The notes: generated from the sequence alone by a model not told the origin. A DNA stretch of 64,000 bases from Candidatus Fermentibacterota bacterium (GCA_030620115.1 JAUXFG010000001.1:9677-73676), one strand, 5' to 3'; positions 6,664 to 52,068 are shown, counted from the first letter of the stretch. Translations and numbers: made by a program.

Positions 6664-6740
<77 letters not shown>

Positions 6741-8093: not shown

Positions 8094-8104
8094 TAAGGCT
8101 TCTT

Positions 8105-8182
8105 GCCCCCGTAGCTCAGTCAGGATAGAGCACCGGTTTCCTAAACCGGGTGCCGCAAGTTCGAGTCTTGCCGGGGGCGCCA
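8105..8182 (+). tRNA. tRNA-Arg (anticodon CCT)
   Basis: Acceptor GCCCCCG/CGGGGGC, anticodon stem CCGGT/ACCGG with loop TT-CCT-AA, T-arm GCAAG-TTCGAGT-CTTGC, and an encoded CCA. Confidence 0.85.
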
Positions 8183-8188
8183 TTCGAT

Positions 8189-8262
8189 ACCCTAAGCCGG
8201 ACTTCTCACCGGGTTTCGAAGCGAAGCGTTCGTCACGATGTGCCACGCGGTTCTGTGTGGTG
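8189..8262. repeat. family R (REP-like) repeat, partial copy
   Basis: agccggacttctcaccgggtttcgaagcgaag matches the arm of the 25.7-kb, 27.0-kb and 50.9-kb copies. Confidence 0.45.
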
Positions 8263-8292
8263 ATTTGGAGAATCGAAGAGAAGGAATAAACA

Positions 8293-13900: not shown

Positions 13901-13904
13901 GATC

Positions 13905-15182: not shown

Positions 15183-15415
15183 TCGGACCAGAGATCAGAG
15201 AGTTTGACGCCCGCCTGAAGAGGCTGGAGGAAGTTGTCGCACAGCTTGAGCGAGGAGGAGTGCCACTCGAAGAATCGCTGAAGCTGTTCGAGGAAGGCAT
15301 GGGTCTTCTCAAGAAGCTTCAGCGTGTGCTGGAGCTGGTAGAAGTGAGGATCGATGAGCTGGTAGATCATGGGGAAGAGAAGCTGGGAACTAGACCTCTC
15401 GAAATCTCCGACTGA
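15149..15415 (+). CDS. xseB: exodeoxyribonuclease VII small subunit
   Basis: FDARLKRLEEVVAQLERGGVPLEESLKLFEEGMGL... in an 88-aa protein. Confidence 0.85.
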   Translation: MSGDKNNSTDIIGPEIREFDARLKRLEEVVAQLERGGVPLEESLKLFEEGMGLLKKLQRVLELVEVRIDELVDHGEEKLGTRPLEISD

Positions 15416-15440
15416 ACTCCTCGCACACATCGGGGCCCGG

Positions 15441-16295: not shown

Positions 16296-16300
16296 CGGAA

Positions 16301-31856: not shown

Positions 31857-34190
31857 ATGACTAGTCGTCTTGCTTGTATGATCGTTGCCGCCATGCTCTG
31901 TGGGTCGGCACCTGCGATGACCCTTGTGGAGGAAGCTACGGTTGCCGGTGACTCCCGGGAAGCCGGGTTCGAGGCAGTACAGCTCGCGCTACGAGGAGTC
32001 ATTGATTCAGCGGTGGTGAAGACCATTGGCCCGAGGCTTGCCCAGCGTTTTCGGCGCGAGCTGGAAGCCCACATCCATGCGAGACGAAGGGCGTTCATTT
32101 CCCATTACCGAATCCCGTTTCTCGTGGATAAGCCCTATGATGGGATCACCACGAGAAAGGTCTCTGCCGAAGTCTCTCTGGAAACGTTGGCCGACACCCT
32201 CATCGCCATGGGGCTGGCCTGGCGAGATCCTGAGGGAAAGGTGGCAGGGTGCCGCGAGGTAGTGGTGAACTTCGCCGACTTTTCACCCCATGATGCACTT
32301 GCCCTGGCAAATGAGATCGAGGGCAGTGGTCTTGTGGCCCGGAACCTGGGCACAGTCGAGAAAATGGCGGGTCCCCAGATGCGCTTCTTGATTTCCGGCT
32401 CCCCATGGGACCTTGCCAGGTCTCTCGCTCAGCTTAGCGCGGAGCGGTTCTCTGTTGGTGCGGTTGCGGGAGATGTCATCGATTTGATCGCCGGCGGGGA
32501 CTTGGCTATCCGGCCTTCGGACGAACGAGAGAATCTTCCACCGCTGGAGATTATGGAGCTCTGGATTGATGAGCTTTTTCCGGCACGCCATCCCCGCTAT
32601 GCACATGAGGCTGTAGGGCGGCTGGTTGTGGCGAACCATGGCGCCCATGCCGTCAGCCATATGGATGTCGAAGTAGAGTGCCCCGCATTCCTCGAGGTGC
32701 CATGGGTGATGCATGCCGGTCCCATTGCTCCCGGCACGATCGATTCCCTGCTCCTCCTGATTCCTTTCTCAGGCGCGCGGCTTATGGCGGTCAGGGATGA
32801 AACACAAACGGTGGTCAGAGTGACCTTGACGTGGAGCCGGGGAGGAGAGGAAAAGCAGCGTGCCGCCACCACGACAGTGACTGTTCACAGTCGCAATGCC
32901 GTGGATTGGAACGATGTGAGATCCGCGTGTGCATTTGTCACGCCAAGTGCACCGGTAGTGGAAGGCGTTGCCAGAAGGGCAATGTCCACTGCGCTCCAGG
33001 GCCAGCAGGATCTTCCGGGAAGCCTTGCCAGGGCGTTCAAGATCGTGCAGGCGCTTTCGTCGTTTGAACTTGCATACACGCCCGATCCTCCCTCGCCGGT
33101 GAGTGCGGCATACGATCATATGCAATTCTCCAACGAAACGCTGCGCCTTGGGGCAGGTGATTGCGAGGATACCGCCGTGCTCTTAGGATCATGTCTGGAA
33201 AATGGGGATCTGCCGGTCCAGCTGCTTCTTACCCAGGACCATGTCTTTGCCGCGTTCAACACGGGCTTGTATTCCAAGGATGGCTTTCTGATCTCTCCTG
33301 ACCGGGAGCGATTTCTCGTGTTGGACGGGAGAATCTGGTTGCCCATAGAGACGACACTGTTGAGCCAGGGCTTTCTTCGGGCCTGGAACGAGGGTGTCCA
33401 AACCTATCGCGCTTTGGAGAAGACAGGCGATTATCTCGAGCGGGTTGATGTACGCCGGGGGTGGCGTATCTATCCTCCTGCAGGAACTCCCGGCGACGAC
33501 GGCTTCACCAAGATGCCCGATATGGCGGGGGCTTCGGCTGAGCTGCGTGCCTTGCTCTCTGCCAGGAGGAAGGCGGTGGCGGAGGTAGAGGAGCGGCTTC
33601 ATGCAGCGGTCAAGGCGCATCCCGAAGATTGGGAGTCGCTCTATAGACTTGGGGTGCTATTGGGGCGCGAGAGCAGGGCTTTCGAAGCTCTCGAATCGTT
33701 CAAGCGTATCCCCGATGGGGTGGCACTTGGCGCGCAGGCGCGAATCGGTGAAGGGAACAGTTACTTGGTTGAGTCGAAGGTTGAGTCTGCGTTGGTCAAG
33801 TATCGCCATGCCGTGGAGCTGGATCCCGATAGTCCTGTGGCGCATGTGAATCTTGGGGTGGCCTACTACCTGGGTGGAGATGAAGAGGGAGCGGTGGAGA
33901 GCTTTGCCTCGGCGGTGGACCTGCTCCCGGGAGAAGAGAAGTCGCTGGCCCATCTGCTGGGAGTGGATATCGAGGAGCTTGGCACCAAAGCTGCAGATGC
34001 ACGGCAGAGACAAGCACTCTCCAAGGGTGAACTCAGGGCGCTCATGGACAAGGTACGAAAGAAGAAGGAATGGAAAAGGCTTGCGGACCGCGGCCCGAGC
34101 CGTCACAAGTTCGCGGGAAGGAAGGCGCTGGATCCAGAGCAGCGGCTTTGTGCAGAGCGGCTCGTGTTTTGGCCCGAGATCGAAGGGTAG
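31857..34190 (+). CDS. secreted transglutaminase-like (papain-fold Cys/His/Asp) domain protein with C-terminal TPR repeats
   Basis: Signal peptide. A GAGDCEDTAVLLGSCLENGDLPVQLL...DHVFAAF...LDGRIWLPIETT arrangement resembling the TGase core. TPR-like helices in the last ~200 aa. Confidence 0.45.
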   Translation: MTSRLACMIVAAMLCGSAPAMTLVEEATVAGDSREAGFEAVQLALRGVIDSAVVKTIGPRLAQRFRRELEAHIHARRRAFISHYRIPFLVDKPYDGITTRKVSAEVSLETLADTLIAMGLAWRDPEGKVAGCREVVVNFADFSPHDALALANEIEGSGLVARNLGTVEKMAGPQMRFLISGSPWDLARSLAQLSAERFSVGAVAGDVIDLIAGGDLAIRPSDERENLPPLEIMELWIDELFPARHPRYAHEAVGRLVVANHGAHAVSHMDVEVECPAFLEVPWVMHAGPIAPGTIDSLLLLIPFSGARLMAVRDETQTVVRVTLTWSRGGEEKQRAATTTVTVHSRNAVDWNDVRSACAFVTPSAPVVEGVARRAMSTALQGQQDLPGSLARAFKIVQALSSFELAYTPDPPSPVSAAYDHMQFSNETLRLGAGDCEDTAVLLGSCLENGDLPVQLLLTQDHVFAAFNTGLYSKDGFLISPDRERFLVLDGRIWLPIETTLLSQGFLRAWNEGVQTYRALEKTGDYLERVDVRRGWRIYPPAGTPGDDGFTKMPDMAGASAELRALLSARRKAVAEVEERLHAAVKAHPEDWESLYRLGVLLGRESRAFEALESFKRIPDGVALGAQARIGEGNSYLVESKVESALVKYRHAVELDPDSPVAHVNLGVAYYLGGDEEGAVESFASAVDLLPGEEKSLAHLLGVDIEELGTKAADARQRQALSKGELRALMDKVRKKKEWKRLADRGPSRHKFAGRKALDPEQRLCAERLVFWPEIEG

Positions 34191-34195
34191 CGCTC

Positions 34196-36130
34196 GTGGC
34201 GATACCCAGGGCGTATGGCTGGTCTGCCGCCGGTGTCATGGCTGTGGGGTGGGTACTGGTGACATGTGCGCTCTCGCCTCTCATCCTGGAGGACTTGGAG
34301 CTTCGCGTTTTTGATCTTTTTCAGCGTTTGGAAGGTATCGATGAAGCCAAACGAGACGATATCGTGCTCGTCAATGTGGACGATGCGACCATCTCTGCCT
34401 TTGGATGGCCGGTGCCTCGTATAGTTTGGGCTCTGTGGCTGAATAATCTGAATGAATTCGGCCCTCGCCAGATAGGATTCGATCTTTTCCTGACACATCA
34501 CCTTTGTGATCCTGCGGAGGATACATTGTTGGCGGCGACCATGCGCGATTCCCGCCCCGTTATTCTCGCAGTCGGGCTGGCATTGCCAGAGGAGCAGAAT
34601 TACCATGAGATCGTGGTGCTCGACAGCGCGGATTTGTCTCTTGTATCCCCGTGGCCTCAACGAGAGGGGTTGGCCTTCGACTCGCGGATTCTCCACTCGG
34701 ATGTGGTCACCGAACGGCCGCTGCCTGTGCTCTTGGACTCGGCATGGGGAGCAGCCAATGTGGCATTGGATCCGGACGGCGATGGTGTGATCCGTCGGGT
34801 TCCACTGTTTACCGAGTTTGCCGATCGGTTGGCGCCGAATTTTGCGCTATCACTCTTTCTCCAGCGGCGGGGCATTGGCCTTGGCGAGCTCACCCTCATA
34901 CCCGGAATGGAACTCATCATTCCCGGAACGGCGCCGATACGTTTGGACTCCAAGTCGCGGATGATTCTGGACTATGTGGGTGGACCGGGCTCTTTTCTCA
35001 CGTTCAGCTTTGTCGAACTCCTCGATCTCTTGGATCGGGCTCTCTCTGATGGGGACGAGAAGGCCATGGAAGCGCTGAGATCGATTCGGGGGGCAACGGT
35101 CATCCTCGGAGTAACCGATCCCTCCCTCATGGACTTACCCGCCACTCCGGTGCATCCCCGATTCCCCGGTCCTGAGATACAGGCCACCGTTCTGGACAAT
35201 CTCCTGAGGGGCACGCACATAACACGGACGGGCTGGAAGGTGGAACTGCTCCTTGCATTCCTTCTCTCGCTCCTCGCGTCAGCAGTGGGGTTACGACTTC
35301 GTCCCGCCACGGGGGCCGCCGTAGTTATTGTCGTGGCAGTAGTCTTCTTGGTGGCCGTTTTCCTGCTTGGCACGCAGCACAACCTATGGGTTGGATCTGT
35401 GGCTGCTCTAGTGGCCGTCGCAGGGAGCTATGGCGCCAGTGTCACCCTTGAACGATTGGCGCGGGAGAAGGAGCAGCGGCTTGTGAAGGATGCGTTCGGC
35501 AAATATGTGTCGCCGGCCGTGCTCAAGGAGCTCCTCCACGATCCCAGTTCCGTACTGAGTGGGGCGGGACAGAAGAAAGACATCACGATCATTTTCTCGG
35601 ATGTAAAGGGCTTCAGCAGACTATGTGAAGAGCACGAGGCTACGGCGCTCCTCACGCAACTCAATGAATATCTCTCGGAGATGACCGAGATCGTGTTCAT
35701 GCATGGGGGGACTGTCGACAAGTTCATGGGTGACGGGCTCATGGCCTTTTTTGGCCATCCGGCCATCCTGGATGATCATGCTGCAAGGGCAGTCCGCGCG
35801 GCCGTTGAGATGCAGCGGAGGTTAGGGGAACTGAGGAAGCGGTGGGAAGAGGAAGGGAGACTTCAGTTCCGCATCAGGGTTGGGGTGAACTCAGGTCAAG
35901 TCATAGCCGGGAGTATGGGTGGCGCCGGAAAGATGGATTATACGGTCTTCGGGCGAAGTGTAAATCTGGCACAGCGTCTCGAGGCTGGTTGTGATACCGA
36001 TGGTGTGCTGGTGAGCGAGCGGACGCTCTTGGAAGCTGGATTGGAAACAGACCAGGCGCAGGCGAAAACCATCCATGCGAAGAATATCGGAGAGGTGACG
36101 GCCTTTCAACTGCCTATGGGGGTTCCGTGA
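34196..36130 (+). CDS. CHASE2 sensor domain - class III adenylate/guanylate cyclase
   Basis: N-terminal TM helix and a CHASE2-like periplasmic region. Cyclase core motifs IIFSDVKGFS...GDGLMAFFG...RIRVGVNSGQVIAG. The start is taken at the GTG just after the upstream stop; the track ORF begins at 34070 inside the previous gene. Confidence 0.75.
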   Translation: MAIPRAYGWSAAGVMAVGWVLVTCALSPLILEDLELRVFDLFQRLEGIDEAKRDDIVLVNVDDATISAFGWPVPRIVWALWLNNLNEFGPRQIGFDLFLTHHLCDPAEDTLLAATMRDSRPVILAVGLALPEEQNYHEIVVLDSADLSLVSPWPQREGLAFDSRILHSDVVTERPLPVLLDSAWGAANVALDPDGDGVIRRVPLFTEFADRLAPNFALSLFLQRRGIGLGELTLIPGMELIIPGTAPIRLDSKSRMILDYVGGPGSFLTFSFVELLDLLDRALSDGDEKAMEALRSIRGATVILGVTDPSLMDLPATPVHPRFPGPEIQATVLDNLLRGTHITRTGWKVELLLAFLLSLLASAVGLRLRPATGAAVVIVVAVVFLVAVFLLGTQHNLWVGSVAALVAVAGSYGASVTLERLAREKEQRLVKDAFGKYVSPAVLKELLHDPSSVLSGAGQKKDITIIFSDVKGFSRLCEEHEATALLTQLNEYLSEMTEIVFMHGGTVDKFMGDGLMAFFGHPAILDDHAARAVRAAVEMQRRLGELRKRWEEEGRLQFRIRVGVNSGQVIAGSMGGAGKMDYTVFGRSVNLAQRLEAGCDTDGVLVSERTLLEAGLETDQAQAKTIHAKNIGEVTAFQLPMGVP

Positions 36131-36520
36131 TTCCGCACGGAACTGAGCTGCCGCTTCCCGCCGGGATGACAGAAGACAGAGGACAGCCATATGGAGTGCG
36201 GCGACATGTCGCCGCTTTGTTTCTCCGTGCCGTGTCGCGGAATCTGAAAGCGGCCTCGTGCGGCCGCACTCCAAGATTCTGTCATCGGAGCTTATCCCGC
36301 GCGGTACGCGGGATTGGTAATCTCCGCCCCACTAAGCGCTCATGGGGAAGCAGAGCGGTGTGCTCCATGAGCGTGAGAATGAATCAGTGTAGCTTCTCAA
36401 TAGATCCGTGCAATATCGGAAAAATCCCCCTCAATCCCCCTTTGCAAAGGGGGAGAAGGCCCGGATGCACGGACTTATTGAGAAGTTGCGAATCGCAAAG
36501 GCGCGTGAGGGGCTGGTAGC

Positions 36521-38200
36521 ATGGGGCGTTCACCGGTATTCGTGCTCGGACTCGATGGTGCAGCATGGCCGGTGGTGCAGCCTTTGATCGATAAGGGTGC
36601 TCTCCCATTCCTGGGGAGCTTGGTGGACAACGGGGCATGGGGTACCTTGGAGGCCCCATGGCCGTGGGCCACTTTTCCGTCGTGGACAAGCATCATGACG
36701 GGCACAACCCAGGGGGTGCATGGTCTCCTTGATTTCAGCGAGCTCGATCCCGCCACAATGCATGTGCGTTTTGTCGATTCCACGTGGCGTCGGGTACCGG
36801 CGATCTGGCAGCTTGCCACAACGAGGGGAAAACGATCCGTGGTTCTCGGGGTACCGGGAACCTATCCCCCTGACAGAGATGTGGAGCTCATGATTTCCGG
36901 CTTTGATACCCCGGTGACCACCAGCATTGATCCGACATTTGTCTGGCCTCCGGACTTCCGTACTCGATTGTTCAGAGAGGTGGGCCGGTTTCCCCTGACG
37001 CCGGTACAAGAGCTGCGCATTGGGAAGGGGTGGCATCGGAAGGCGCTTGCGGCGTTGCTGGAGAGCATCCAGGGGAAGACTCGAGTCGCACGATTTGTTC
37101 TCGAAGAGCTCCACCCCGATTTATTCGTCATGGTATTCGGGGAATCGGATACGGTGTGTCACCACTTCTGGCATTTTGCGGATCCCAGGAGTCCCCGGGC
37201 AGAACCAGGCCTTCGCCCTGAGTTGCGGACCGCCATTGAGCAGGTCTATACGGCGCTGGATAGCGCACTCTCAGAGATCGTGCAGAGCTCGAGATTGGCG
37301 CCTACTGTTCTGCTGGTTTCGGATCATGGATTCGGCGGCGCGGGAAGTACGGCGCTTCACCTCAACCGGTTTCTTGCATCCCATGGCTTCCTTACATTCG
37401 GATCACGTGCCGCCTTACCGGCTGTTTTTTCTTCGGTGCCCGCCACGATGCTGCCCTTTTTCCCACGGACCCTGCAGCAGTGGGTCTTTCGCAAGGCGGG
37501 GTCAAAGATGATTCCGCGGCTCGAAGGTCGGCGCAGATTTGCGGGGATTTTGTGGCAGGAGACGTTGGCCTATTCTGAGGAGTTGAACTATGCTCCTGCG
37601 ATTCGGATCAATCTGCGCGGTCGCGAGCGAGGTGGCGTGGTTGCGCCTGAGAAATATGAAGAGGTCCGGGAGCGGATTACGGCGGCATTGCGGGCATGGA
37701 GGGACAAGAGGACGGGCGAGCCCGTGGTAAGGAGAATCTTTCGGAGGGAAGAGCTCATCCAGGGGCCCGCGGTCGAGAAGGCGCCGGACCTTCTCCTGGA
37801 ATTGCATGCCCCTGGAGGATACTCGTATGTGGTGCTTCCCTCGGAGGGGAAAACGGAGCCGGTGCAGGAAGAGATCGACAGCGCTGGATCGAGTGGGGCC
37901 AAGGGCAGGGGAATGCACGGGAGCCACCGGCGGGAGGGGTTTTTTGTCGTCTCCGGCAAAGGCATTTCCCGGGGGGCGCTGCAGAACCCGGTGCAGGCGC
38001 ATCAGGTGGCGGGAATTGTCCTTGCGGAGTTAGGTCTTTCGCTTCCGTCCTGGATCTCTCTGCCCCCTCCAGGGGTGCTTATGCATGAGCCCGAGATAGA
38101 AGCGGGAGAAGAGCATGCCCAAAGAGGTGAATTAGTTGACCGCGCGGGAGATCTGGCATGGGAACGCACCAGGCGCCTGAAAGATCTTGGATATCTATGA
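36521..38200 (+). CDS. alkaline-phosphatase superfamily phosphohydrolase/phosphomutase (COG3379-like, type I phosphodiesterase/nucleotide pyrophosphatase family)
   Basis: N-terminal VFVLGLDGA metal-ligand block, SGFDTP and VSDHGF motifs. Confidence 0.65.
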   Translation: MGRSPVFVLGLDGAAWPVVQPLIDKGALPFLGSLVDNGAWGTLEAPWPWATFPSWTSIMTGTTQGVHGLLDFSELDPATMHVRFVDSTWRRVPAIWQLATTRGKRSVVLGVPGTYPPDRDVELMISGFDTPVTTSIDPTFVWPPDFRTRLFREVGRFPLTPVQELRIGKGWHRKALAALLESIQGKTRVARFVLEELHPDLFVMVFGESDTVCHHFWHFADPRSPRAEPGLRPELRTAIEQVYTALDSALSEIVQSSRLAPTVLLVSDHGFGGAGSTALHLNRFLASHGFLTFGSRAALPAVFSSVPATMLPFFPRTLQQWVFRKAGSKMIPRLEGRRRFAGILWQETLAYSEELNYAPAIRINLRGRERGGVVAPEKYEEVRERITAALRAWRDKRTGEPVVRRIFRREELIQGPAVEKAPDLLLELHAPGGYSYVVLPSEGKTEPVQEEIDSAGSSGAKGRGMHGSHRREGFFVVSGKGISRGALQNPVQAHQVAGIVLAELGLSLPSWISLPPPGVLMHEPEIEAGEEHAQRGELVDRAGDLAWERTRRLKDLGYL

Positions 38201-38593
38201 GCGGTGTCAGGGTTCGCGCAAGAATCAGCACTAACAACGGCCATGACGGAGTATGGCCCTCCAGAGGGGGATGCGTACATCTTGTCCTGTGGAGGGACGA
38301 CCTCCGTGTCGTCCGCAGAACTAGGCCCAAGAATCTCACGACTTTCTGCCTGAATCAACAACTCCGCAACCCGAAGTCCGTGAGCCACTGCCCTTGAGCA
38401 GAACCGAATGGCGAGAATGACTATGACGGCCAATGTCCTCCATCTTCCATCGGCATCGGCATCGAATTGAGGTGTGATCACATGGCCCTCAGTCGCGGAA
38501 ATCCGGATGTTTGATGAAGGCGCGCGCAACGGTGTGGCTGATTTTGATAGCGATTCCGATGATGCTCAGCTGAGAGCAGGGAGCAGAGAGCTC

Positions 38594-39775
38594 ATGGCCG
38601 GGGCTGGCGGGAAACAAGCACTGCGCATCCTTATGCTGGCGCCCTGCCCATTCCCCACCAGCCAAGGATCGCAGACGTTGATCAGGCAGCTGGCAGCCGG
38701 CCTCCAACATCGTGGACATGAAGTCCACCTGGTGACCTATCACCATGGTGAGTACAGGGAGGAATTCGCCTTCAGCGTGCATAGGACGCCCTATTTCCCC
38801 GGCACAAGCAGGCTCAAGGCGGGGCCGAGCCTTGGCAAGCTCGTGCTTGATCTTTTCTTTTGGTACATTGCAGTGAGAGTGGCGGGAGAGATCAATCCCC
38901 ATCTTATTCACGGGCACAACTACGAGGGCGCCATTCTTGGCCATTTGGTGGCCAAGAAACGCGGCATTCCACTGATATATCACACACATAACGTGATGCA
39001 TGAAGAGCTGCCCACCTACTTCCATCAGAGGCCTCTTCGATTTTTGGCGCGGAAGGTCGGTCTATGTTTGGATAATTGGATACCGCGGCACGCCGATCAA
39101 ATCATTGCCATCAACAGGGCGCTGAGGCGGGAGCTCGTGACCATGGGGATTGATCCTGAACGGATACGGATCGTACCTCCAGGAATCTGGCCGGCGGAGT
39201 GGGAGAGAGCCGTGGAGCCCCGGCAAGAGCCTTTGGTCGTCTACACCGGCAATCTGGACAACTATCAGAACCTTTCCCTGCTGATTGAGGGTATAAGGCT
39301 GGTGAAACAGAGGATTCCTGGAGCCACGCTGAAGATCGTAAGCCATGAGACCAGACCGAGGTTGGAACGAGAAGCTCGTAAGCTGGGCATGGAAGAAGCC
39401 GTAGAATTCATCAAAGTCGATACGTTCAGTCAGGTCAAGGCGTGGATACTGCGGGCTGCGGTGGTGGTCTGCCCGCGGATACCAACGTGTGGTTACCCCA
39501 TAAAGCTTGTGAACTACCTTGCTGCGGGTAGACCGGTGGTGGTCAGCGAGGCTTCCGCAGACGGCATTGTGGATGGGGAAAGCGGGCTGGTGGTGGAAAC
39601 AGGGAATCCCGCCGCGTATGCAGAGGGTATCATCAAGCTCCTCACCGATCGAGCACTTGCGACTCGCATTGCCCGGGAAGGGAGGCGCTTGGCATCGGAG
39701 AAGCATTCATGGGATCGATCTTTGGCTGCCATCGAGGCTTCGTATCGAGCGGCATTAACCGGGGTCAAATCTTGA
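38594..39775 (+). CDS. glycosyltransferase family 4 (GT-B)
   Basis: ILMLAPCPFP N-terminal domain and the EX7E-like C-terminal region (ESGLVVETGNPAAYAEGI). The start is taken at the internal Met; the track begins at 38474. Confidence 0.75.
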   Translation: MAGAGGKQALRILMLAPCPFPTSQGSQTLIRQLAAGLQHRGHEVHLVTYHHGEYREEFAFSVHRTPYFPGTSRLKAGPSLGKLVLDLFFWYIAVRVAGEINPHLIHGHNYEGAILGHLVAKKRGIPLIYHTHNVMHEELPTYFHQRPLRFLARKVGLCLDNWIPRHADQIIAINRALRRELVTMGIDPERIRIVPPGIWPAEWERAVEPRQEPLVVYTGNLDNYQNLSLLIEGIRLVKQRIPGATLKIVSHETRPRLEREARKLGMEEAVEFIKVDTFSQVKAWILRAAVVVCPRIPTCGYPIKLVNYLAAGRPVVVSEASADGIVDGESGLVVETGNPAAYAEGIIKLLTDRALATRIAREGRRLASEKHSWDRSLAAIEASYRAALTGVKS

Positions 39776-39786
39776 CGGGCATCCTC

Positions 39787-42700
39787 ATGGCCGGGCTTGT
39801 GCTGGCAGTCATCGGAGCACCTTCGCATGGGGCTGAGGTCGAGGTTCTCAGATCAGACCAGGCGAGCATCAGGTTGCTGATCAGGCCCTCAGTGGATGAT
39901 CGGGTATGGAATGGATGGGTCGGCCTCCCTCCCGGAGCCTCGGTGGAAGAGGTGAGCGTTCGAACACAAGGGCGTGTGCGCCCGGTACCATGGGAGCTGG
40001 GCCGCGAGGTCACCACAAGTCCTCAAATCACCGTTGGTCCCGTGGGTTTCATAAGGTTCCATAGGGCTTGTCCCCTTCGGGTCGAGACAGGAATGGCTAC
40101 CCAGGACGGGGTGGCAGGAATTCCAGAGGTCCTATTGGTGGAGATCCTGCTTTCGCCAGGATCTGCCAAGGCGCGGAAACGAAATGTCGGATTTCAGAAT
40201 GTATTGTCGAATTTGTTCGTGAACTGGCAAAGCGCCCAGCATTGGGCCGAGCAGATGGACGGTCCGCCGCTTCCGCCTCCAGTGCCGGCCCCGAGCATCC
40301 GTATCCGAGTAAGAGAGGAGGGGCTCTACAGGATTACTGCAGAGGATCTTCCCGATATGCCTGGGGATGCGGATCCCCGGATGTTTTCTCTTTGGAACCG
40401 AGGGAGCTATGTTCCTTTGCGGGTGGTAGTGCAGCAGCCGGACACCGTATGGAAAGATGGTGACTGGATCGAGTTCTATGCCCACGGCACCCGGCGGGAA
40501 GATCCACAGGGACGGTGGACTCCGGTGGAAAGCAAGTATGGCCTCGATAACCCCTACTATCTCGTGTGGGACCAGGTGGATCCTCCAAGAATCCTCGATG
40601 TGTCTTCAGAGCCTACAGGCGGCCCGGCCGCTACGTATCATTGGTGGGTATGTCACCGTGAGGTGAACACGAATTCCTCACTATCGGGCCATGAGGGAGC
40701 CATCGACGATGAATGGTACTGGGGCGGACAGCTCGGCCCCGGCCAGATTTCCAAGCAGTTTTCTCTGCCAGATCTGGCGCGGGAAGTGGCGGATGGGGTG
40801 ATCCGCGCCAGATTCCAATCCATGAGCCTTTCCGAGTCTGAGATGCATCTTCTGGTGAATGGCGCCATGGTCGCAGAAGGGTCGTGGAACGGCTTCGGCG
40901 CACAGCTCTTGGAAGGTCAGGGGGTGCCGCTTGATGTGGGTACGAATCAGCTCGTTATGGATTTCTCGGGAGATGCGTACTCACGAGTTCATCTCGACTG
41001 GTTCGCAATTCAATACCCTCGAGAGTATGTCATGTCAGGGGGGCAGGCCGCGTTCGGACCATCTGCCGATGATCGCCCAGAGTACGAGATTTCTGGTTTG
41101 GAGCCTGGGACCAAGACGGATATCTTTGAGATCAGCTCAGGCCTCAGATTCATGGATTTCCACCACGAGGCGGACCAAGAAGGGGCAATCCGGTTCAGGG
41201 CTAATCTCCCGGATAGTGCGACCTTCTTGGTGGTGACGAACAGCGGTTGGCTTACTTCCCTTGATCTTCCCGACATGCCTACGTGGATCGAGCCACATCC
41301 GGCCGTGGCTGATGAGGATCGAGAAGGTAGCTATTTGATTGTGTATCCGTCTGATTTCTTAGAGGCGGCCAGCGGCCTGAGAGATCACCATCTGGACGCC
41401 GGAGATATCGAAAGTGCAGAGATGGTGGATGTGCGCCATATCTGGGAGGAGTTCTCATACGGCCTGCCGGACCCGCGAGCCTTGCGCTCATTCCTGCAAT
41501 GGACATTGGCCAATTGGAGCGATCCGCCGGAGTTCGTGCTGCTCTTTGGGGACGGCACGTGGGACTACAACGGCTACATGAACCAACACGCCAGCGTGAA
41601 TCTCGTGCCCAGCTATGGCAATCCCGCGTCTGATAATTTCTACGCGAGCCTCAACGATACGAGCTACTTCCCCGATCTACACGTCGGACGTGTGCCGGCG
41701 GTTGATGCCACTCAAGCCTGGAATGCTTTCCAAAAGATACGCAACTACCGTGCCTCTCCAGAGCCGTCGTTGTGGCGCAAGCTTGTTCTTTTTGTCAATG
41801 GCGGGGGCACACAGGATGAGTTTGACTACTTCGCGGCGTGGACATCGATCACCTCCCAGCTTGTCGTCGCACCGCCGCCGGTCCTGGGCGCCACATCGAT
41901 CATTGCTAAGGACCAGGAAGAATACTGGATGGGCTACTACAATAAGAGCATAGCCGCGGCGGTAGACTCAGGCTGTCTGATCATGAACTTCTTCGGCCAC
42001 GCCGCAACGCAGACCTGGGACTTTATGTTCGAGTCAGATGATGTTGATTCACTTCTCAACGGGGATCGTACCCCCTTGGTGCTCAGCCCTACATGCTTCA
42101 CCGGCGATTTCGCGGATCCACGCCAGGTGGTCTTCGCGGAACACTTCCTCAGATTGGACGAACCGGAGCACGGCGCAATCGGCTTTTTTGGAAGCTCCGG
42201 CACCGCGTACCAGAACAAAGGCGGGGTCTACGCCTATCGGATCATGGAGTCCATCTTTTGCAAGGGAGATCCCCGAGTCGGGCCGGCAATCACCTGGGCG
42301 AAGCTCAACGGATATCCCTACACGAGCCCTGAGGACTCGATCATGGCCACGGTATTCAGCCTGCTGGGCGATCCGCTCCTCTCCCTCGTGCTGCCCGAAG
42401 CGCCGGACCTTCACATCGGTCCGGAGAGGGTTACCGTGCAACCAGAGGAGCCGGCAGTGGGGGATAGCGTGAGGCTTCTTGTGAGCGTGCTCAATGAAGG
42501 GGTGTCATGGGAGGATGAATACCGGGTGACTGTCCACTGCGAAGGCCAGGAGCTGGCTTCAGGATTTGCCCGGGCCGATTCGCTGGAGAATCGCCTTTCC
42601 TTGTCCTGGCCTGCCCCTGCCCAACCGGGAAGCCAGGAGATCGAGATCCATGTGGACCCGGATCAGAGTGTAGAAGAGGAAGACAGGGAGGACAATACCA

Positions 42701-45700
42701 CTGCGTTGACCATAACCTACCTCAAGCGGCGCCCTGTGGTCCTCTTGCCTCTCAGCGATGCCATGGTTCCGGGAGCTCTTGCGGAATTTTTCATCACCGC
42801 AGTCTCGACGCAACCCCATGGGTTCCAGATTGCGCTTTGCGATACCTTTGGTTCCTCTGTGATCGACTCCTCCGGTCCCGTGTCGCCTGAGGCAGGCCTT
42901 GTTTCGTGGACATGGTCCTCGCCTAGTCCAGGGACCTACTGTTGGAGGGCGAGGGGCCAGGGCGGCGCATGGTCTTTTCCCAGGTGGTTCACTACTGGAG
43001 TGGAAGCAGCGGGATGGGGCCAGTTCCTTCCCGCGCAGCTGACCGGCGGGGTCATGGAAGACTGCGAAGTCACCGATCTAGGGCTTGGGTTGTACGCCAG
43101 GGTCAACATATCTCGGGATTTTGCACTGTTGTCAGAAGGCGCCACTGTTCCTGAGGTCTCGACCCACAACCCCGACGCCTGCGGCCCGGAGAATCTCATT
43201 GGAGGCCAGGTGGGGAACACCGATTGGGGCGGTTCCTTTTACTTCCGCCGGCTCGATGAGAACCAGTATGCGGTGGTGGACCTGGGAGAGCCCAGGATGA
43301 TAATAAAGATCGCCAGCGCCCATGAAGGGGATACACTCACTGACCGATCCGTATGGTCCCATTTCGGTATCGAAAGCTCGTTGAATGATGTCGATTACAA
43401 GCTGTGGGGCAATACGCCTGACTACAGCGACTCAGGCTATGGGCCATGGATTTCGAGTAACATGGCCTATGAGAAGCCGTATCCGATCTCGGTTCGGTAT
43501 ATCAAGTTCAGCTATGGACAATGTCATCCCATAGGCACAATACGGCCGGGCTCACGGGTCTATGAAGTCTATGCATATGCCGCGCTGTACCCTGATTCAG
43601 GCTCGGTCTTTTCCCCGCCCCTCGGTCCTTCTGATCAGTGGGGCAGGCTCACGGCCTTGGGCGATGTTCCAGGAGGGACCAACACGACGATCGAGGTCTA
43701 TCTGGAAGATGAGAATGGAACGTGGGAGCTGGGCAGAACTATGTCCTTGGGAGCGGATCAGGCCCTTGATTGGATCGGAGATGAGTACCGGCGCGTGAAG
43801 CTTCGTGGCGTACTCACCAGCGAGTCTATGGATGTGACGCCCAGGCTTATGAGCTGGAGCGTGGAGTATCGCTCGATCCCGGATCTTGCGACCATGCACG
43901 ATACGCTTCTCGTAGTTCCTGAGCTGCCGGAGCCTGGCAGCACGGCCCAGATTCGAGCCATAGTGATCAATGCCGGTTCAGAACCAGTTTCGGGAGCCTC
44001 GTACCGTCTCGATGCGCAGCTTGATGATGATGCGCCCACGACTCTGGAGTCGGGCGTGCTGGGATGGCTTACCCCGGGATTGCCCGAGAGTCTTTCGACC
44101 CCATGGGTTGCGGAGGGAGGCGTGACGCGTTTCACCCTGGTGCTCGACCCTGATGAAAAGATCACCGAGGCATGGGAAGAGAACAATACGGTGTATGGAG
44201 AGGCCCGTGTACTGGGCAATCTTGCCTGGATAGATAGTATCGAGGTCAGCCCTCCGGTTCCCAGTCCCAGAGAATCGCTTTCTGTAGAAGCATGGGTCGT
44301 CAATAATGGGGTTCTTGCTTTGGGCGAGAGTTGGGCACGGTGTTTCTGGGTTGGGTCGGACAGCGGAGAGATAGTCGCCATTCCCCCTCTTGCGCGTGAT
44401 GAACGAGCAAGGCTTATCTGGTCCATGGTGGCGCCCGACAGCGTGGGGTCCTATCAGCTCGCCTGTGAGCTCGATCCGGATTCCCTGGTTCGGGAAGCCT
44501 GGGAGGATGATAATATCATCTTGCTCCCTATCGAGGTTGTACAAGGCCCTGACCCGGCTCTTTTCGATGTAGATGTCTACTGTGTGACGCCCGCGGTGGG
44601 CGATCCTGTGGAGGTCGTTCTGGGATTGACGAACTTCGGTGGCCGGGATACTGAAGAGTTCCTCGTTCTTGGCCTCGAACAAGGGGTGTGGCGCGACAGT
44701 CTCTTCATTGATGGGCTCGCCGGCGCGGAGAGTACGGTGGTCTCTTTGTGGTGGCCCACCGGCGATGCGGCGCGGAGCCACTTCCTGGAGTTCCATGTCG
44801 ATCCTGACAGCTTTGTCGTTGATTGTGACCGGGCCAACAATGTCTTGACCATGGAGCTTATCACGGTTCTTCTCCCCGATCTCTACGCCGCAGGCGATAG
44901 TACGTGGCCCGCTTTTCCCATTGCAGGTGACCCCATGACCCTGCATACAGAAGTCAGGAATCGCGGCATCGTGCCTGCAGGGGGCTTCGAGGTATCCGTG
45001 CAATGGCCCGATGGGGAACAAGAGACGCAACGCGTTGATTCGCTGGGGGGCCAAGAGACGGTTCAGTTCCAGTGGGATTGGATACCCGAGACATCCGGTA
45101 GCGGTAGCGTGATCATGACCATTGATAGTGCCGGTGAGGTGGGAGAGGCATGTGAAACCAACAATGAGACGGCAATCCAGCTCCAAATAGGGCAGCCGTG
45201 GGACTTGGCTGTAGCCTCAACGGACATTCAGAAGCAAGATCCCACGGCTTCGTTCGTGGCCTGGGATTCATTGTTTCTCCACATCATCGTGCACAATGTG
45301 GGAGACGAGGCATCGCCTTCAGTGCCTGTCGAGCTTTTCGACGGCATCCCGGAATCGGACGGAACGCTTCTCAAAGCGGAGGACATGGCCTTGGCGGCAG
45401 GCGCTTCCGATACCTTGGAGGCGGTGTGGCCCGAAGGTGCTTTTCCCGGCACACATCTTCTGGTGGCGGTGCTGAACCGGCAGAATGAGATCGAAGAGTT
45501 CAATACTTCGAACAACCGGGCGAGCCGGGAGGTGGTGGTGTTGGGAGACACGATCCCTCCAGGCGTGGCGGTCAGGCCGCCGTGGCCGGGATTCGCCCAG
45601 GGCGGGTTTCTCGCTCAGGGAGACACCATTACGGCATACGGATGGGATGAAGCCAGCGGGATGAATCGCCTGGAGATTTTTCTGGATGATGCGGACATCA

Positions 45701-46155
45701 CCGAGGCATTCATCTCAGAGCCGGACTCGAGTCAGGGGATTCCAGGGATCAGAACGATTTTCCCTATTGTGGGGGGGCCTGGTGAACATCGATTGAGAGC
45801 CCGGGCTGTGGATAATGCGGGGCTATGGACAGAGGCTGAAATCCGATATACGCTTTCCCAAACCGCACTGGTACGAAATGTGGCTGCATTCCCGAGCCCC
45901 GCGTCAGGTCCTACCCGGGTCACGGCGGAACTCTCACGGCCGGGCCAGATGATTATCAGCCTCTATACCACAGGGGGCCGGTTCATCCGGCGCCTCCAGG
46001 GCGAAGCTCTCTATCCGGGCAGGGCAGGCCTGGAGTGGGACCTTCTGGACCAGGATGGTGACCGCGTGGCGAATGGCGTGTACCTTGTAAGCTTCAAATT
46101 GCAGACTGATGAAGCCAGCACGGAGGCACTAGGGAAACTCGTGGTGATGAGGTAG
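39787..46155 (+). CDS. giant secreted peptidase C25 (gingipain-like) family protein with multiple CARDB/Ig-like repeats and a C-terminal FlgD-Ig / T9SS-type sorting domain
   Basis: Signal peptide (MAGLVLAVIGAPSHGAEV). C25 core at ~41.3-42.4 kb with candidate catalytic His (NFFGHAATQTW) and Cys (SPTCFTGDFADP). At least 5 repeats ending in DN/NN motifs (REDNTTA, EDDNII, RANNVL, ETNNET, NTSNNR). The C-terminus PSPASGPTRVTAELSRPGQMIISLYTTGGRFIRRLQ...VYLVSFKLQTD...GKLVVMR resembles a Por/T9SS CTD. Confidence 0.8.
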   Translation: MAGLVLAVIGAPSHGAEVEVLRSDQASIRLLIRPSVDDRVWNGWVGLPPGASVEEVSVRTQGRVRPVPWELGREVTTSPQITVGPVGFIRFHRACPLRVETGMATQDGVAGIPEVLLVEILLSPGSAKARKRNVGFQNVLSNLFVNWQSAQHWAEQMDGPPLPPPVPAPSIRIRVREEGLYRITAEDLPDMPGDADPRMFSLWNRGSYVPLRVVVQQPDTVWKDGDWIEFYAHGTRREDPQGRWTPVESKYGLDNPYYLVWDQVDPPRILDVSSEPTGGPAATYHWWVCHREVNTNSSLSGHEGAIDDEWYWGGQLGPGQISKQFSLPDLAREVADGVIRARFQSMSLSESEMHLLVNGAMVAEGSWNGFGAQLLEGQGVPLDVGTNQLVMDFSGDAYSRVHLDWFAIQYPREYVMSGGQAAFGPSADDRPEYEISGLEPGTKTDIFEISSGLRFMDFHHEADQEGAIRFRANLPDSATFLVVTNSGWLTSLDLPDMPTWIEPHPAVADEDREGSYLIVYPSDFLEAASGLRDHHLDAGDIESAEMVDVRHIWEEFSYGLPDPRALRSFLQWTLANWSDPPEFVLLFGDGTWDYNGYMNQHASVNLVPSYGNPASDNFYASLNDTSYFPDLHVGRVPAVDATQAWNAFQKIRNYRASPEPSLWRKLVLFVNGGGTQDEFDYFAAWTSITSQLVVAPPPVLGATSIIAKDQEEYWMGYYNKSIAAAVDSGCLIMNFFGHAATQTWDFMFESDDVDSLLNGDRTPLVLSPTCFTGDFADPRQVVFAEHFLRLDEPEHGAIGFFGSSGTAYQNKGGVYAYRIMESIFCKGDPRVGPAITWAKLNGYPYTSPEDSIMATVFSLLGDPLLSLVLPEAPDLHIGPERVTVQPEEPAVGDSVRLLVSVLNEGVSWEDEYRVTVHCEGQELASGFARADSLENRLSLSWPAPAQPGSQEIEIHVDPDQSVEEEDREDNTTALTITYLKRRPVVLLPLSDAMVPGALAEFFITAVSTQPHGFQIALCDTFGSSVIDSSGPVSPEAGLVSWTWSSPSPGTYCWRARGQGGAWSFPRWFTTGVEAAGWGQFLPAQLTGGVMEDCEVTDLGLGLYARVNISRDFALLSEGATVPEVSTHNPDACGPENLIGGQVGNTDWGGSFYFRRLDENQYAVVDLGEPRMIIKIASAHEGDTLTDRSVWSHFGIESSLNDVDYKLWGNTPDYSDSGYGPWISSNMAYEKPYPISVRYIKFSYGQCHPIGTIRPGSRVYEVYAYAALYPDSGSVFSPPLGPSDQWGRLTALGDVPGGTNTTIEVYLEDENGTWELGRTMSLGADQALDWIGDEYRRVKLRGVLTSESMDVTPRLMSWSVEYRSIPDLATMHDTLLVVPELPEPGSTAQIRAIVINAGSEPVSGASYRLDAQLDDDAPTTLESGVLGWLTPGLPESLSTPWVAEGGVTRFTLVLDPDEKITEAWEENNTVYGEARVLGNLAWIDSIEVSPPVPSPRESLSVEAWVVNNGVLALGESWARCFWVGSDSGEIVAIPPLARDERARLIWSMVAPDSVGSYQLACELDPDSLVREAWEDDNIILLPIEVVQGPDPALFDVDVYCVTPAVGDPVEVVLGLTNFGGRDTEEFLVLGLEQGVWRDSLFIDGLAGAESTVVSLWWPTGDAARSHFLEFHVDPDSFVVDCDRANNVLTMELITVLLPDLYAAGDSTWPAFPIAGDPMTLHTEVRNRGIVPAGGFEVSVQWPDGEQETQRVDSLGGQETVQFQWDWIPETSGSGSVIMTIDSAGEVGEACETNNETAIQLQIGQPWDLAVASTDIQKQDPTASFVAWDSLFLHIIVHNVGDEASPSVPVELFDGIPESDGTLLKAEDMALAAGASDTLEAVWPEGAFPGTHLLVAVLNRQNEIEEFNTSNNRASREVVVLGDTIPPGVAVRPPWPGFAQGGFLAQGDTITAYGWDEASGMNRLEIFLDDADITEAFISEPDSSQGIPGIRTIFPIVGGPGEHRLRARAVDNAGLWTEAEIRYTLSQTALVRNVAAFPSPASGPTRVTAELSRPGQMIISLYTTGGRFIRRLQGEALYPGRAGLEWDLLDQDGDRVANGVYLVSFKLQTDEASTEALGKLVVMR

Positions 46156-47239: not shown

Positions 47240-48457
47240 TCACGAGTTTCCTGCATTCCCCGTGGCGAATACCAGCCAGAGCAAGAGGAGTACTCCCGAG
47301 AAACGATGGAGCTCTCTGATCCAAGGGACAAGTTCGTCGAATATGGAGGTGATGGAAGGGATCAGAAGCAAGACCCCAGTGGCCAAGAGGAGGCTCAGGA
47401 TGACCGCCCGAAAGAAGCGCGCGGAAAGAAATTTCGGATGGGAAATCCCTCTGGGGAGCAGGAATCGGGCAGCGCATACTGCAAGGAGAATGACGCCGGC
47501 AAGCAGATGAACGTGACAGAGTGAAGAAAGTGCCCGGCCGCCACCAAAGTAGATACCCGCTCCGGTGATCAAAAGGAGGAGCATGGCGATTCCACGGATC
47601 CTCGCGGCGGGCCCTGGTGCGAATATTTGTATAAAACCATTGGCGCCGGTTCGAAGCACCCGTCGGAGATGCAGTGCAATGAGGAGGAGCAGGACCGCGA
47701 TGACGAAGATCAGCTCCGCGGCGAGACCATATCCCCATCCGGGCACTCTTCTTCCCGTCCAATGGTCAATCTGTTGGCCAAAGGTGGCGTCGGCCAACCG
47801 TCTGGAATGGCAAATCCTGCAATCTCGGAGGGATGAGGGCGCCGGCAGCACAAAATGCTCCGATCCGCCTGTCTCCAGGGGGAAGTGGCATCGCGTACAT
47901 GACACTTGCCTGAGATGTAACCCTGCTCCAGGAAAGAGCAAATGGCTCTCATTCAGCTCTCTCATTGGGTGACAACGGATGCAGGACTCATTGGTCTGTT
48001 GAGGTGGTGCACATCGTGAGATTGATGAGGAATGTGGCTCGTGGCAGGCGCCGCACGAGAAGTTCCCCATTCGGGTGACGTGAATATCCCCGCCTTGCGC
48101 AGCAAGATACTCGTTGAATGGCAGATGACTGCAAGGGGCCGGCTCTGTTCCGTGGCATGAACCGCAGGAGAGTGACGTGGAAGCGCCTGGAGGGAGGTGG
48201 GGTACGTGGGCGAATGATTCGCCATGGCACTGTATACAGCTCAAAGAACCATGATCACTCTCAAGGAATCCCTTCTCCGACAGGGGGACGGAGAATCCGA
48301 CGCCCATGCTATCCGCCTTCACGAGAGAGACCCGCTCGTGACACCCGAGACATGATGCGCTCTCGGGGGGAAGGCTCTCTCGGTTCGCTGCATTGATGAG
48401 CAGCGCGAGGATAACAAGCAAAATCGCCATCGATTCGGGACCTCCATGAGGGATCAT
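47240..48457 (-). CDS. multiheme (7x CxxCH) c-type cytochrome fused to a C-terminal polytopic membrane (putative di-heme b-type) domain; CbcL-like
   Basis: Signal peptide. Seven CxxCH motifs: CLGCH, CIQCH, CGSCH, CGACH, CIRCH, CTRCH, CRICH. Then ~5 TM helices with conserved His residues (ALHLRR, LCHVHLLAG, RELHRF). Confidence 0.7.
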   Translation of the reverse strand: MIPHGGPESMAILLVILALLINAANRESLPPESASCLGCHERVSLVKADSMGVGFSVPLSEKGFLESDHGSLSCIQCHGESFAHVPHLPPGASTSLSCGSCHGTEPAPCSHLPFNEYLAAQGGDIHVTRMGNFSCGACHEPHSSSISRCAPPQQTNESCIRCHPMRELNESHLLFPGAGLHLRQVSCTRCHFPLETGGSEHFVLPAPSSLRDCRICHSRRLADATFGQQIDHWTGRRVPGWGYGLAAELIFVIAVLLLLIALHLRRVLRTGANGFIQIFAPGPAARIRGIAMLLLLITGAGIYFGGGRALSSLCHVHLLAGVILLAVCAARFLLPRGISHPKFLSARFFRAVILSLLLATGVLLLIPSITSIFDELVPWIRELHRFSGVLLLLWLVFATGNAGNS

Positions 48458-50909: not shown

Positions 50910-51110
50910 CCTGCGCTTCTTACCGGCTTTCGTCGCGAAGCGGTGTAGTTAGCTGTGCCTGCAAGGCTTGCGACCGAGGACCCCGCAGGCGTATCCCCTG
51001 TCCCGCGTCTGACGCGGGATCGAGGAGTCCGAAGGAGCGTAACGCAGCAGGCAGAGCCAAATGCAACGCTGTAGTCCCGCGGCGGACGCGGGATGAGAAA
51101 TGCGGGCTAA
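50907..51110. repeat. family R (REP-like) repeat, copy 3
   Basis: cttaccggctttcgtcgcgaag...gcttgcgaccgaggaccccgcaggcgtatcccctgtCCCGCGtctgaCGCGGGat...gagcgtaacgcagcaggcagagcc...CCCGCGgcggaCGCGGGat. It shares both cores and the gagcgtaacgcagcagg segment with the 27-kb copy. Confidence 0.7.
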
Positions 51111-51114
51111 GCCC

Positions 51115-52068
51115 ATGGTATTCTACGGAGAGGACGCATTGGCGCTGGAACTCTGGCATGATCTTGCCGCTGGAGACCGGCGATGCAGGCTGTCTCAGAC
51201 ACCGCAGTGGGCACGGTGGTCTGCGGATGAGCTGGGGTGGAAGATAGGGTGCATGATGTGGGAATTGGAAGAAGTCGTCTTCCCGTTTGTGGTGGTCAAT
51301 CGGCACTCGTGTATTGATGTTCTTGTGGAATCGCTTCCATGGGGTCAGATCGGGGGGCCCCTGGTGGGTGGGAGCGAGCATCGGGAAGTGACCTCATTGG
51401 TGGCAAAAGAGATCGAAGGACTTGCGCAGGAACTCCTAGTATACGCCGACTCCGTGCGATTCTCCCCGGCCACGTGGCAATCATGCACCTACAGCATTCA
51501 TGAGGCTTCTCTGACGGACGACCGGGAACGCCAGTGGGCACTTGCAGAGCCGCGTTGCAGAACCGCTGCCCGACATGCGGAGCGAGAAGGCGTCCGAATT
51601 GTGAAAGCCACGGGAGGCGCCTTGCTGGCCGAGTCAGTGGCTCTCCACCTGAGACAGCAAGGCGTGAGAGATGCCAGGGTACTGCCTGGTAGCTGGTGGG
51701 AGCGTCTTTTGCGGGAAGGTGCACATCATGTGGGGCTCTGGTGTGCAGTTATGGACAGCCGCGTTATTGCCGCATTGCTCGTCGGGTGGTGGCAAGATCG
51801 AGCAGTAGCATTGATTTCCACCAGTGACCCAAGGGCACGGCCTCTGAAGGCGGGGAACCTTCTCTATCTCACCGTGTTGGAAGAGCTTGGAGTTCGGGGC
51901 CTCAGAACCCTTGATCTCGGCGGGAGTCGAGGCAAGCCCGGGCTCGAATCATTCAAGGAGTCAGTGGGTGCGTATCGCACCAGCAGACCCTTCTATCGAT
52001 ACAGGAATCCGACCTACAAGCTTTACCAGAGCGTTGCCCGGAAAGCGAAGATGATCGTCGGGCATTGA
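51115..52068 (+). CDS. FemAB-family / BioF2-like GNAT acyltransferase (peptide or aminoacyl transferase acting on a glycan or lipid-linked precursor)
   Basis: Two-lobed GNAT-like architecture of ~320 aa. The start is taken at the Met after the repeat; the track start at 51100 lies inside repeat R3. Confidence 0.45.
   Translation: MVFYGEDALALELWHDLAAGDRRCRLSQTPQWARWSADELGWKIGCMMWELEEVVFPFVVVNRHSCIDVLVESLPWGQIGGPLVGGSEHREVTSLVAKEIEGLAQELLVYADSVRFSPATWQSCTYSIHEASLTDDRERQWALAEPRCRTAARHAEREGVRIVKATGGALLAESVALHLRQQGVRDARVLPGSWWERLLREGAHHVGLWCAVMDSRVIAALLVGWWQDRAVALISTSDPRARPLKAGNLLYLTVLEELGVRGLRTLDLGGSRGKPGLESFKESVGAYRTSRPFYRYRNPTYKLYQSVARKAKMIVGH

Follow-up and report, generated by a model that had tools for sequence, protein, structure and literature searches.

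To our knowledge, no characterised enzyme other than PorU links secreted proteins to a glycolipid of the surface in the pathway of type IX secretion systems (T9SS), and nearly all studies of PorU, as far as we know, concern a few Bacteroidota. Gingipains are substrates of the same system and carry its C-terminal domain (CTD). PorU and PorZ keep their own CTD. Here, we analyse a long gene for a PorU-like peptidase of family C25 in a stretch of 64,000 nucleotides from a Candidatus Fermentibacterota bacterium (GCA_030620115.1, JAUXFG010000001.1:9677-73676), the whole of which we call the window, and the product of the gene the window protein. T9SS is known from the phylum Bacteroidota (PMC10202324), and the mechanism of PorU consists of CTD cleavage and transfer to anionic lipopolysaccharide (A-LPS) (PMC11205867, PMC11285876). 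We find that the window protein is a PorU chassis with an insert of about 1,040 amino acids (aa) after the catalytic domain, and we show that such long-form genes recurrently stand as the 3'-terminal genes of Wzx/Wzy-type glycan clusters in several phyla of the Fibrobacteres-Chlorobi-Bacteroidetes (FCB) group.

Relationship to PorU and the gingipains

PorU ranked first by sequence profiles, by sequence search of the PDB and in comparisons of two AlphaFold2 models, for the N-terminal 1,000 aa and the last 210 aa alike. The best NCBIfam score was that of PorU2 (NF052324; 257.8 bits, aa 172-970, model positions 34-879 of 879), with PorU (NF033707) at 248.9 bits (aa 171-871, model positions 8-736 of 1095); the controls P0008, P0017, P0021 and P0022 scored 607-1054 bits, above the PorU cut-off. 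With phmmer against the PDB, the PorU structure 6za2 came first (E = 2e-8) through three collinear stretches, at the N-terminus, in C25 and in the CTD, and aa 171-237 paired with PorU residues 40-111; Kgp and RgpB reached only E-values of 5e-4 to 7e-3. The AlphaFold2 model of aa 1-1000, with a predicted local distance difference test (pLDDT) score of 82.6 and a predicted template modelling score of 0.83, matched 6za2 in Foldseek at E = 2e-30 over about 960 columns, against 1e-20 to 1e-17 over about 500 columns for RgpB and Kgp. For the model of aa 1913-2122, the top match was the C-terminal part of the same PorU structure (E = 2.4e-11). It is this homology of the N-terminal part, C25, the penultimate immunoglobulin (Ig)-like domain and the CTD that makes the window protein a PorU chassis, with an insert that comprises a CARDB repeat, an Ig and a discoidin-like module, and five more CARDB repeats.

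An earlier note on this DNA had described the protein as gingipain-like. PorU is ahead by sequence, by NCBIfam and by fold, and neither gingipain haemagglutinin/adhesin domains nor, at E <= 1, the Propeptide_C25 (PF08126) prodomain was detected in the Pfam scan of the window protein. Membership of the gingipain subfamily (Rgp/Kgp) is thus not upheld, PorU being the closer characterised relative.

The features of the gene, in window coordinates, are the following.

39787..46155 (+), PorU-like C25 peptidase gene, long form, from the list of open reading frames (ORFs) and the translation: 2,122 aa and a stop codon; alternative starts 39709 (ATG) and 39772 (TTG)
39787..39834 (+), short signal-peptide-like hydrophobic N-terminal segment (MAGLVLAVIGAPSHG, then AE), read from the sequence; longer with the start at 39709
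39835..40296 (+), N-terminal beta-sandwich, aa 17-170: AlphaFold2 strands E17-E122, pLDDT mostly 80-93; outside the PorU and PorU2 models; no Propeptide_C25
40297..41331 (+), PorU-type N-terminal beta domains, aa 171-515: NCBIfam PorU model from position 8 and PorU2 model from position 34; phmmer; Foldseek to 6za2
41332..42387 (+), Peptidase C25 catalytic domain, aa 516-867: Pfam PF01364; His738 at 41998-42000, Cys770 at 42094-42096
42403..42702 (+), CARDB repeat 1, aa 873-972: Pfam and repeat mapping; AlphaFold2/Foldseek match to the CARDB structure 3idu, template modelling score 0.76-0.81
42703..43878 (+), middle region, aa 973-1364: Ig-like module, discoidin-like module and further beta module, from Pfam matches of homologues
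43177-43512 (+), discoidin-like (F5/8 type C) module, about aa 1131-1242: sub-threshold in the window copy, family matched in homologues
43879..45522 (+), CARDB repeats 2-6, aa 1365-1912: Pfam, repeat mapping and 2l0d
45523..45876 (+), penultimate Ig-like domain, aa 1913-2030: common to canonical PorU; alignment A3, AlphaFold2 (pLDDT 95) and Foldseek
45877..46152 (+), sorting domain of T9SS type at the C-terminus, a beta-sandwich, aa 2031-2122: TGGRFI holds the conserved Gly and GKLVVMR the Lys

Catalytic domain

Peptidase_C25 (PF01364) is matched over its full length (model positions 1-374 of 374; E = 1.9e-66, 225.3 bits for a cut-off of 23). PorU and Kgp each place their catalytic His and Cys (in Kgp, His444 and Cys477) opposite His738 and Cys770 in the PDB phmmer alignments, so that the catalytic His and Cys named by the earlier note hold their place. 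The His is invariant in alignment A1 and the Cys at least 90% conserved, and both residues are kept in the window protein and in 30 of 30 long-form relatives examined, both copies of tandem pairs included, together with the motifs that flank them. As judged from the sequence, the C25 dyad of the window protein is intact. In P0008 (L004 10001-13678), whose 607 bits are above the PorU cut-off, a Ser stands in place of the catalytic Cys (YAAASQVGVFD).

C-terminal sorting domain

The last ~90 aa, proposed by the earlier note to be a T9SS-type sorting domain, are confirmed as such by structure and family evidence. The domain follows the type A pattern, as a beta-sandwich of about 80-90 aa at the extreme C-terminus whose beta3-beta4 loop has a conserved Gly and whose last strand has a Lys, two residues described as functionally important in the CTD (PMC11285876). 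Together with the penultimate Ig-like domain it aligns with the PorU equivalogs P0008 and P0017 in alignment A3, which also took in P0015 and P0026, PorU-type proteins without NCBIfam scores here. Neither Por_Secre_tail (PF18962) nor TIGR04183 was matched in the window protein by the Pfam and NCBIfam scans, and FlgD_ig appeared only below threshold (aa 2056-2106, 17.3 bits for a threshold of 27). The close CTD homologues P0177 and P0178 carry a precomputed PF18962 annotation. The same CTD lies at the exact C-terminus of 96 of the 174 relatives collected, typically as ...ANGVYLY...KLVVMR, and cargo with Por_Secre_tail adjoins long-form genes in several loci.

A set of relatives without the beta-sandwich CTD ends in a short shared tail of the form [FY]LP[LISA]xx[RK], for example ...YLPLVLRR, ...IFLPLLVR and ...FIPLVMRPTP. 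They are mostly about 1,000 aa long (965-1,775) and comprise P0060, P0062, P0085, P0106, P0107, P0109, P0111, P0116, P0118, P0121, P0136, P0155, P0157, P0162, P0165, P0167 and P0169; the tail resembles another kind of C-terminal sorting tag, carried by one and the same protease family.

The insert between catalytic domain and tail

CARDB (PF07705) is found by Pfam in six stretches (E = 3.5e-53, 178.5 bits for a threshold of 22.7), and repeat mapping places the six copies at aa 873-972, 1365-1469, 1480-1578, 1590-1687, 1697-1795 and 1806-1912. At least five such modules had been predicted, ending in DN or NN motifs, and a D/E/N-N motif does close every copy, in order EDNTT, EENNTV, EDDNII, RANNVL, ETNNET and TSNNRA. 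The CARDB fold also matches 2kl6 (Foldseek on the model of aa 1-1000), and in the phmmer search of the PDB the CARDB-like structure 2l0d aligns with aa 1608-1690.

The 392-aa stretch between the first and second CARDB repeats is conserved in all homologues of about 2,100-2,250 aa, and many of its residues are invariant over 11 of them. F5_F8_type_C stays below threshold in the window copy (aa 1133-1242, 15.8-18.9 bits for a threshold of 28.2). Because this family is matched in six of the nine long-form homologous middle regions (best E = 2e-8) and an Ig family, Ig_Rha78A_N, in four of the nine, we interpret the region as an Ig-like, a discoidin-like and a further beta module. A profile search of the PDB with the middle region returned the discoidin domain of CASPR2 only marginally (E = 0.07), and a katanin match was dismissed as spurious. 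Relatives of about 1,750 aa (P0006, P0033 and P0035) have another module in place of the discoidin-like one, with a precomputed PF15711 (ILEI/PANDER-like) annotation in P0006; the inserted module, of a sugar-binding type, seems swappable between relatives.

Gene limits and N-terminus

An uninterrupted ORF runs from 39709 to 46155 on the + strand. The earlier note was right that the ORF is real, although its length of 2,121 aa becomes 2,122 aa plus the stop codon, and all peptides it quoted occur in the translation: NFFGHAATQTW (with His738), SPTCFTGDFADP (with Cys770), ISLYTTGGRFIRRLQ, VYLVSFKLQTD and GKLVVMR. Three start codons compete, and the choice is ambiguous. ATG 39787 is the start of the database protein P0001 (NCBI-sourced, 2,122 aa), identical to the window protein; ATG 39709 has a GGAG 8 nucleotides upstream and gives a fuller signal peptide by adding a charged n-region; TTG 39772 forms a TTGA overlap with the stop codon of the upstream glycosyltransferase gene, and in L003 the orthologue and its own upstream glycosyltransferase gene share 4 nucleotides. 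The N-terminal segment is probably a signal peptide, and the orthologues P0002 and P0003 have hydrophobic leaders of 18-24 aa ahead of a conserved EV.VL.SD motif. G+C content is even across the gene and its surroundings, and a scan for promoters and terminators gave nothing informative.

Family size and distribution

Homologue searches with a word index lacked sensitivity (22, 7 and 4 matches); the true family size came from an exhaustive HMMER search. With aa 1-900 as query, 11,736 cluster representatives passed at an E-value of 1e-3, and the stricter limit of 1e-30 left 1,363, from phyla of the FCB group. Of the 174 related proteins collected, 76 have CARDB. P0002 (52% identity) is a full-length orthologue, as is P0003 (47%, from a 'Candidatus Fermentibacteria' metagenome-assembled genome (MAG)), and a MAG labelled 'Candidatus Eisenbacteria' holds an orthologue fragment at 48% identity. 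More distant long forms, 23-32% identical in the best aligned segment, come from MAGs labelled KSB1, Caldithrix, Ignavibacteriota, Chlorobi, Kapaibacteria, Bacteroidota, Latescibacterota and Gemmatimonadaceae. All five distant long forms tested scored under both NCBIfam cut-offs, and long-form relatives of Bacteroidota and Ignavibacteriota reach 294-330 bits with the PorU2 model. In a neighbour-joining tree, unbootstrapped and to be read as a rough guide only, the window protein falls with the forms of 2,100-2,250 aa, apart from canonical PorU.

The long-form gene is often duplicated, mostly in tandem (L017 9386-20154, L020 8591-19464, L021 9194-20283 and L047 9137-17356); in L011 the two copies are convergent (2922-8840 and 12396-18152). 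Where checked, the His and Cys are present in both copies. The locus of P0004 holds a second C25/CARDB gene (2,182 aa) and a YfhO-like membrane protein.

C25 and PorU-like proteins are a known kind, for which NCBIfam already has the PorU2 model. The window protein fails both equivalog thresholds, carries the large insert and has a conserved glycan-operon context that we did not find described.

Glycan-cluster context

Directly upstream of the window gene lies a gene for a family 4 glycosyltransferase (GT4), as the earlier note had reported, and further genes of glycan assembly lie downstream.

38474..39775 (+), GT4 gene, Pfam Glyco_transf_4 and Glycos_transf_1; runs up to or into the start of the C25 gene
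49653-50909 (+), Wzx-type flippase, from Pfam
51100-52068 (+), GNAT-domain protein (Acetyltransf_6), from Pfam
52635-53813 (+), second GT4, from Pfam

Clustering of the neighbours of 30 loci gives this adjacency more meaning than a single-locus coincidence would have, and overturned the view, prompted by an orthologue at 47% identity without the GT4, that it is coincidental. The upstream GT4 belongs to neighbour cluster C1, present in 20 of the 30 loci. In L003 and L064, whose GT4 is 64% identical to that of the window, the adjacency is the same and the whole window neighbourhood is syntenic, and P0004, at 28% identity to the window protein, also has a GT4 directly upstream. In 18 of 28 long-form loci, the gene immediately upstream is one for a glycosyltransferase and has the same orientation. 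Glycosyltransferase-family ORFs make up 69 of 197 upstream neighbours, and on the downstream side 2 of 183 (Fisher p = 2e-20), in statistics drawn from heuristic ORF calls over loci that are not phylogenetically independent. The recurrent co-directional cluster upstream of long-form genes consists of a Wzx flippase, GT4 in two to three copies, GT2, GT9, a WecG/TagA-family transferase and a protein of about 500 aa without a Pfam match, joined in some loci by a WecA/MraY-type transferase. In the annotated loci without an immediate upstream glycosyltransferase, the upstream neighbours are housekeeping genes, proteins without a Pfam match and CTD-bearing cargo. Neighbours of the PorU equivalogs are of another kind: a PorV gene comes next after P0017, and a gene for a PorZ-like propeller protein just before P0008.

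In other phyla, it is the flippase and GT4 families of the window that are seen repeatedly upstream of long-form genes. The flippase, the GNAT-domain protein and the second GT4, 3.5-7.7 kb downstream of the C25 gene and syntenic in L064, could well form one functional unit with it. A dTDP-glucose 4,6-dehydratase gene (about 15.5 kb) and a gene for EIIA of the phosphotransferase system also lie downstream.

Three paralogous genes for GDSL/SGNH hydrolases lie 8-14 kb upstream, at 25912-27036 (+), 29204-30451 (-) and 30543-31673 (-), and a GDSL lipase gene lies just upstream of the Fermentibacteria orthologue (L001 7686-8777); such hydrolases may be glycan O-acetyl esterases or lipases tied to the same envelope functions. 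Between them and the GT4, a co-directional run at 31857-38200 (+), kept in L003 and L064, encodes a tetratricopeptide repeat (TPR) protein, an adenylate/guanylate cyclase with a CHASE2 sensor, a 130-aa ORF and a phosphodiesterase of the alkaline-phosphatase superfamily, and may provide a regulatory or envelope-modifying context for the cluster. Just downstream of the C25 gene, and likewise kept in L003 and L064, is a gene for a multihaem c-type cytochrome at 47240-48457 (-), with Cytochrome_C7/c3 and MtrC-like matches.

Proposed function and alternatives

We give about an even chance to the reading that the window protein is a PorU-type transpeptidase tied to the glycan encoded by its operon. 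As a long form within the PorU branch of C25, it would be a Sec-exported, CTD-bearing cysteine transpeptidase or peptidase, whose CTD would direct it through a T9SS-like pathway and which would then stay at the cell surface. There it would cut the CTDs off cargo proteins and move the cargo, in the manner of a sortase, onto a glycan that the linked glycosyltransferases produce, the counterpart of the A-LPS used by PorU in P. gingivalis; binding or reaching that glycan would fall to the discoidin-like module and the stalk of CARDB repeats.

Several observations weigh against this proposal. The window protein failed both NCBIfam cut-offs, with 248.9 bits for 420 with PorU and 257.8 for 450 with PorU2, and PorU model positions 737-1095 are left unmatched by the profile hidden Markov model (HMM). 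Sequence does not separate a transpeptidase from a hydrolytic protease, and ordinary surface hydrolases, too, typically carry CARDB and discoidin modules. An immediate glycosyltransferase is absent from 10 of the 28 long-form loci, including that of the 47%-identical Fermentibacteria orthologue (L001/L006). No porV, porZ, sov or porK-N was found among the 40 longest ORFs of the window (every ORF from 240 aa upwards plus several below that length, with about eight small ORFs left out) or in the orthologous loci L001, L003, L064 and L065, and our literature search found no report of T9SS in Fermentibacteria. The same genome may also hold a canonical PorU outside these 64 kb.

A 21-bit match to PorW/SprE in the window was dismissed as being at the level of TPR only, and a search with a custom HMM turned up no further proteins with a CTD, either in the window or in L001-L003. 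The C25 gene is itself the best candidate for a porU-like gene, where the earlier note had read it as cargo that implied a T9SS or a related CTD-sorting pathway in the organism; for the virulence or polymer-degradation role suggested at the same time we found no specific support.

The strongest alternative, which we consider somewhat unlikely, is that the window protein is ordinary T9SS cargo: a large surface-anchored or secreted C25 endoprotease or adhesin with a gingipain-style function, degrading protein for nutrition, whose CTD is removed by a separate canonical PorU and whose CARDB and discoidin modules bind substrates or surfaces. In its favour are the intact dyad and full-length catalytic domain, the CARDB repeats and discoidin-like module, and the scores under the PorU equivalog cut-offs. 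The same type of CTD also occurs on unrelated cargo near relatives, such as a Big_5/phosphatase protein with Por_Secre_tail in L008, and the Hyd24-12/Fermentibacteria genome paper infers a dependence on extracellular proteases (PMC5030696). Against it, homology to PorU extends far past the catalytic domain at both ends and Propeptide_C25 is unmatched; a conserved terminal place in glycan operons is unexpected for a nutritional protease, and the relatives are single-copy or in tandem at one conserved locus rather than scattered as cargo genes would be.

It is improbable, in our judgement, that the protein is a glycan-cluster accessory independent of T9SS, its tail a plain Ig/FlgD-like module and its export by another route, acting on proteins associated with the envelope or with exopolysaccharide; one version, by analogy with exosortase genes in exopolysaccharide loci, is that it might mature or anchor a specific partner. 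Against it, 96 of 174 relatives have the tail as their very C-terminus, it shares motifs with the CTDs of proteins that pass the PorU cut-off, its close homologues are annotated as PF18962, and relatives occur in Bacteroidota, Ignavibacteriota and Chlorobi of the FCB group, with Por_Secre_tail cargo adjoining in several loci. That the protein is a catalytically silent structural or surface-layer protein retaining the C25 fold is highly improbable, for despite its very large, repeat-rich build and the Ser-for-Cys replacement in P0008, which shows that inactive or altered members exist even above the PorU cut-off, His738, Cys770 and their flanking motifs are kept in it and in every long-form relative examined.

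A broader version of the transpeptidase proposal, which is speculative and on balance unlikely in its entirety, is that the long forms are dedicated operon-encoded sortases which, with the co-transcribed Wzx/Wzy pathway, constitute an undescribed self-contained module for attaching proteins to glycans. The discoidin or ILEI-type module would replace PorZ as the glycan presenter, and the module would have spread over FCB-group phyla, including Fermentibacteria-like lineages without a reported T9SS.

Taken together, a large, deep-branching PorU-like set with intact active sites, consistently closing glycan operons, suggests greater diversity and a wider spread of protein-to-glycan sorting than the P. 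gingivalis model conveys. The locus offers a testable pairing of an enzyme with a candidate glycan substrate, and shifts its annotation from virulence-type protease cargo to candidate secretion and attachment machinery. For T9SS in Fermentibacteria-like organisms, the window gene is the first thing to examine.

Comparison with known systems

The most distant parallel, and one of analogy only, is with exosortase/PEP-CTERM systems, reportedly described by Haft et al. in 2006, in which the gene of a protein-sorting cysteine transpeptidase likewise lies inside a polysaccharide locus and the substrates are C-terminally tagged. The enzyme there is a membrane protein as opposed to a soluble C25 domain, the tag is another one and there is no homology, so that these systems are a precedent for the gene-neighbourhood logic only. 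The gingipains RgpB and Kgp (1cvr, 4rbm) share with the window protein the caspase-like C25 catalytic fold and its dyad, but their match is limited to a catalytic and Ig part of about 350-500 aa, and by Foldseek E-value PorU is ten orders of magnitude closer.

PorU2, which NF052324 names 'putative type IX secretion system sortase PorU2' in a model of the N-terminal domain, gives the best NCBIfam score and a near end-to-end match, although the 257.8 bits are under its cut-off of 450. Literature searches gave no description of PorU2 or of PorU paralogues; a single apparent match for 'PorU2' was 'PorU' followed by a superscript citation number.

From PorU itself (P. gingivalis PG0026; 6za2; NF033707), the window protein differs in being only about 14-19% identical and at 249 bits for a cut-off of 420, in its insert of about 1,040 aa and extra N-terminal sandwich of 150 aa, and in a gene that adjoins a GT4 rather than porV or porZ. 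What the two have in common is the collinear order of the N-terminal beta domains, the C25 domain with its dyad, the penultimate Ig-like domain and a type A-like CTD.

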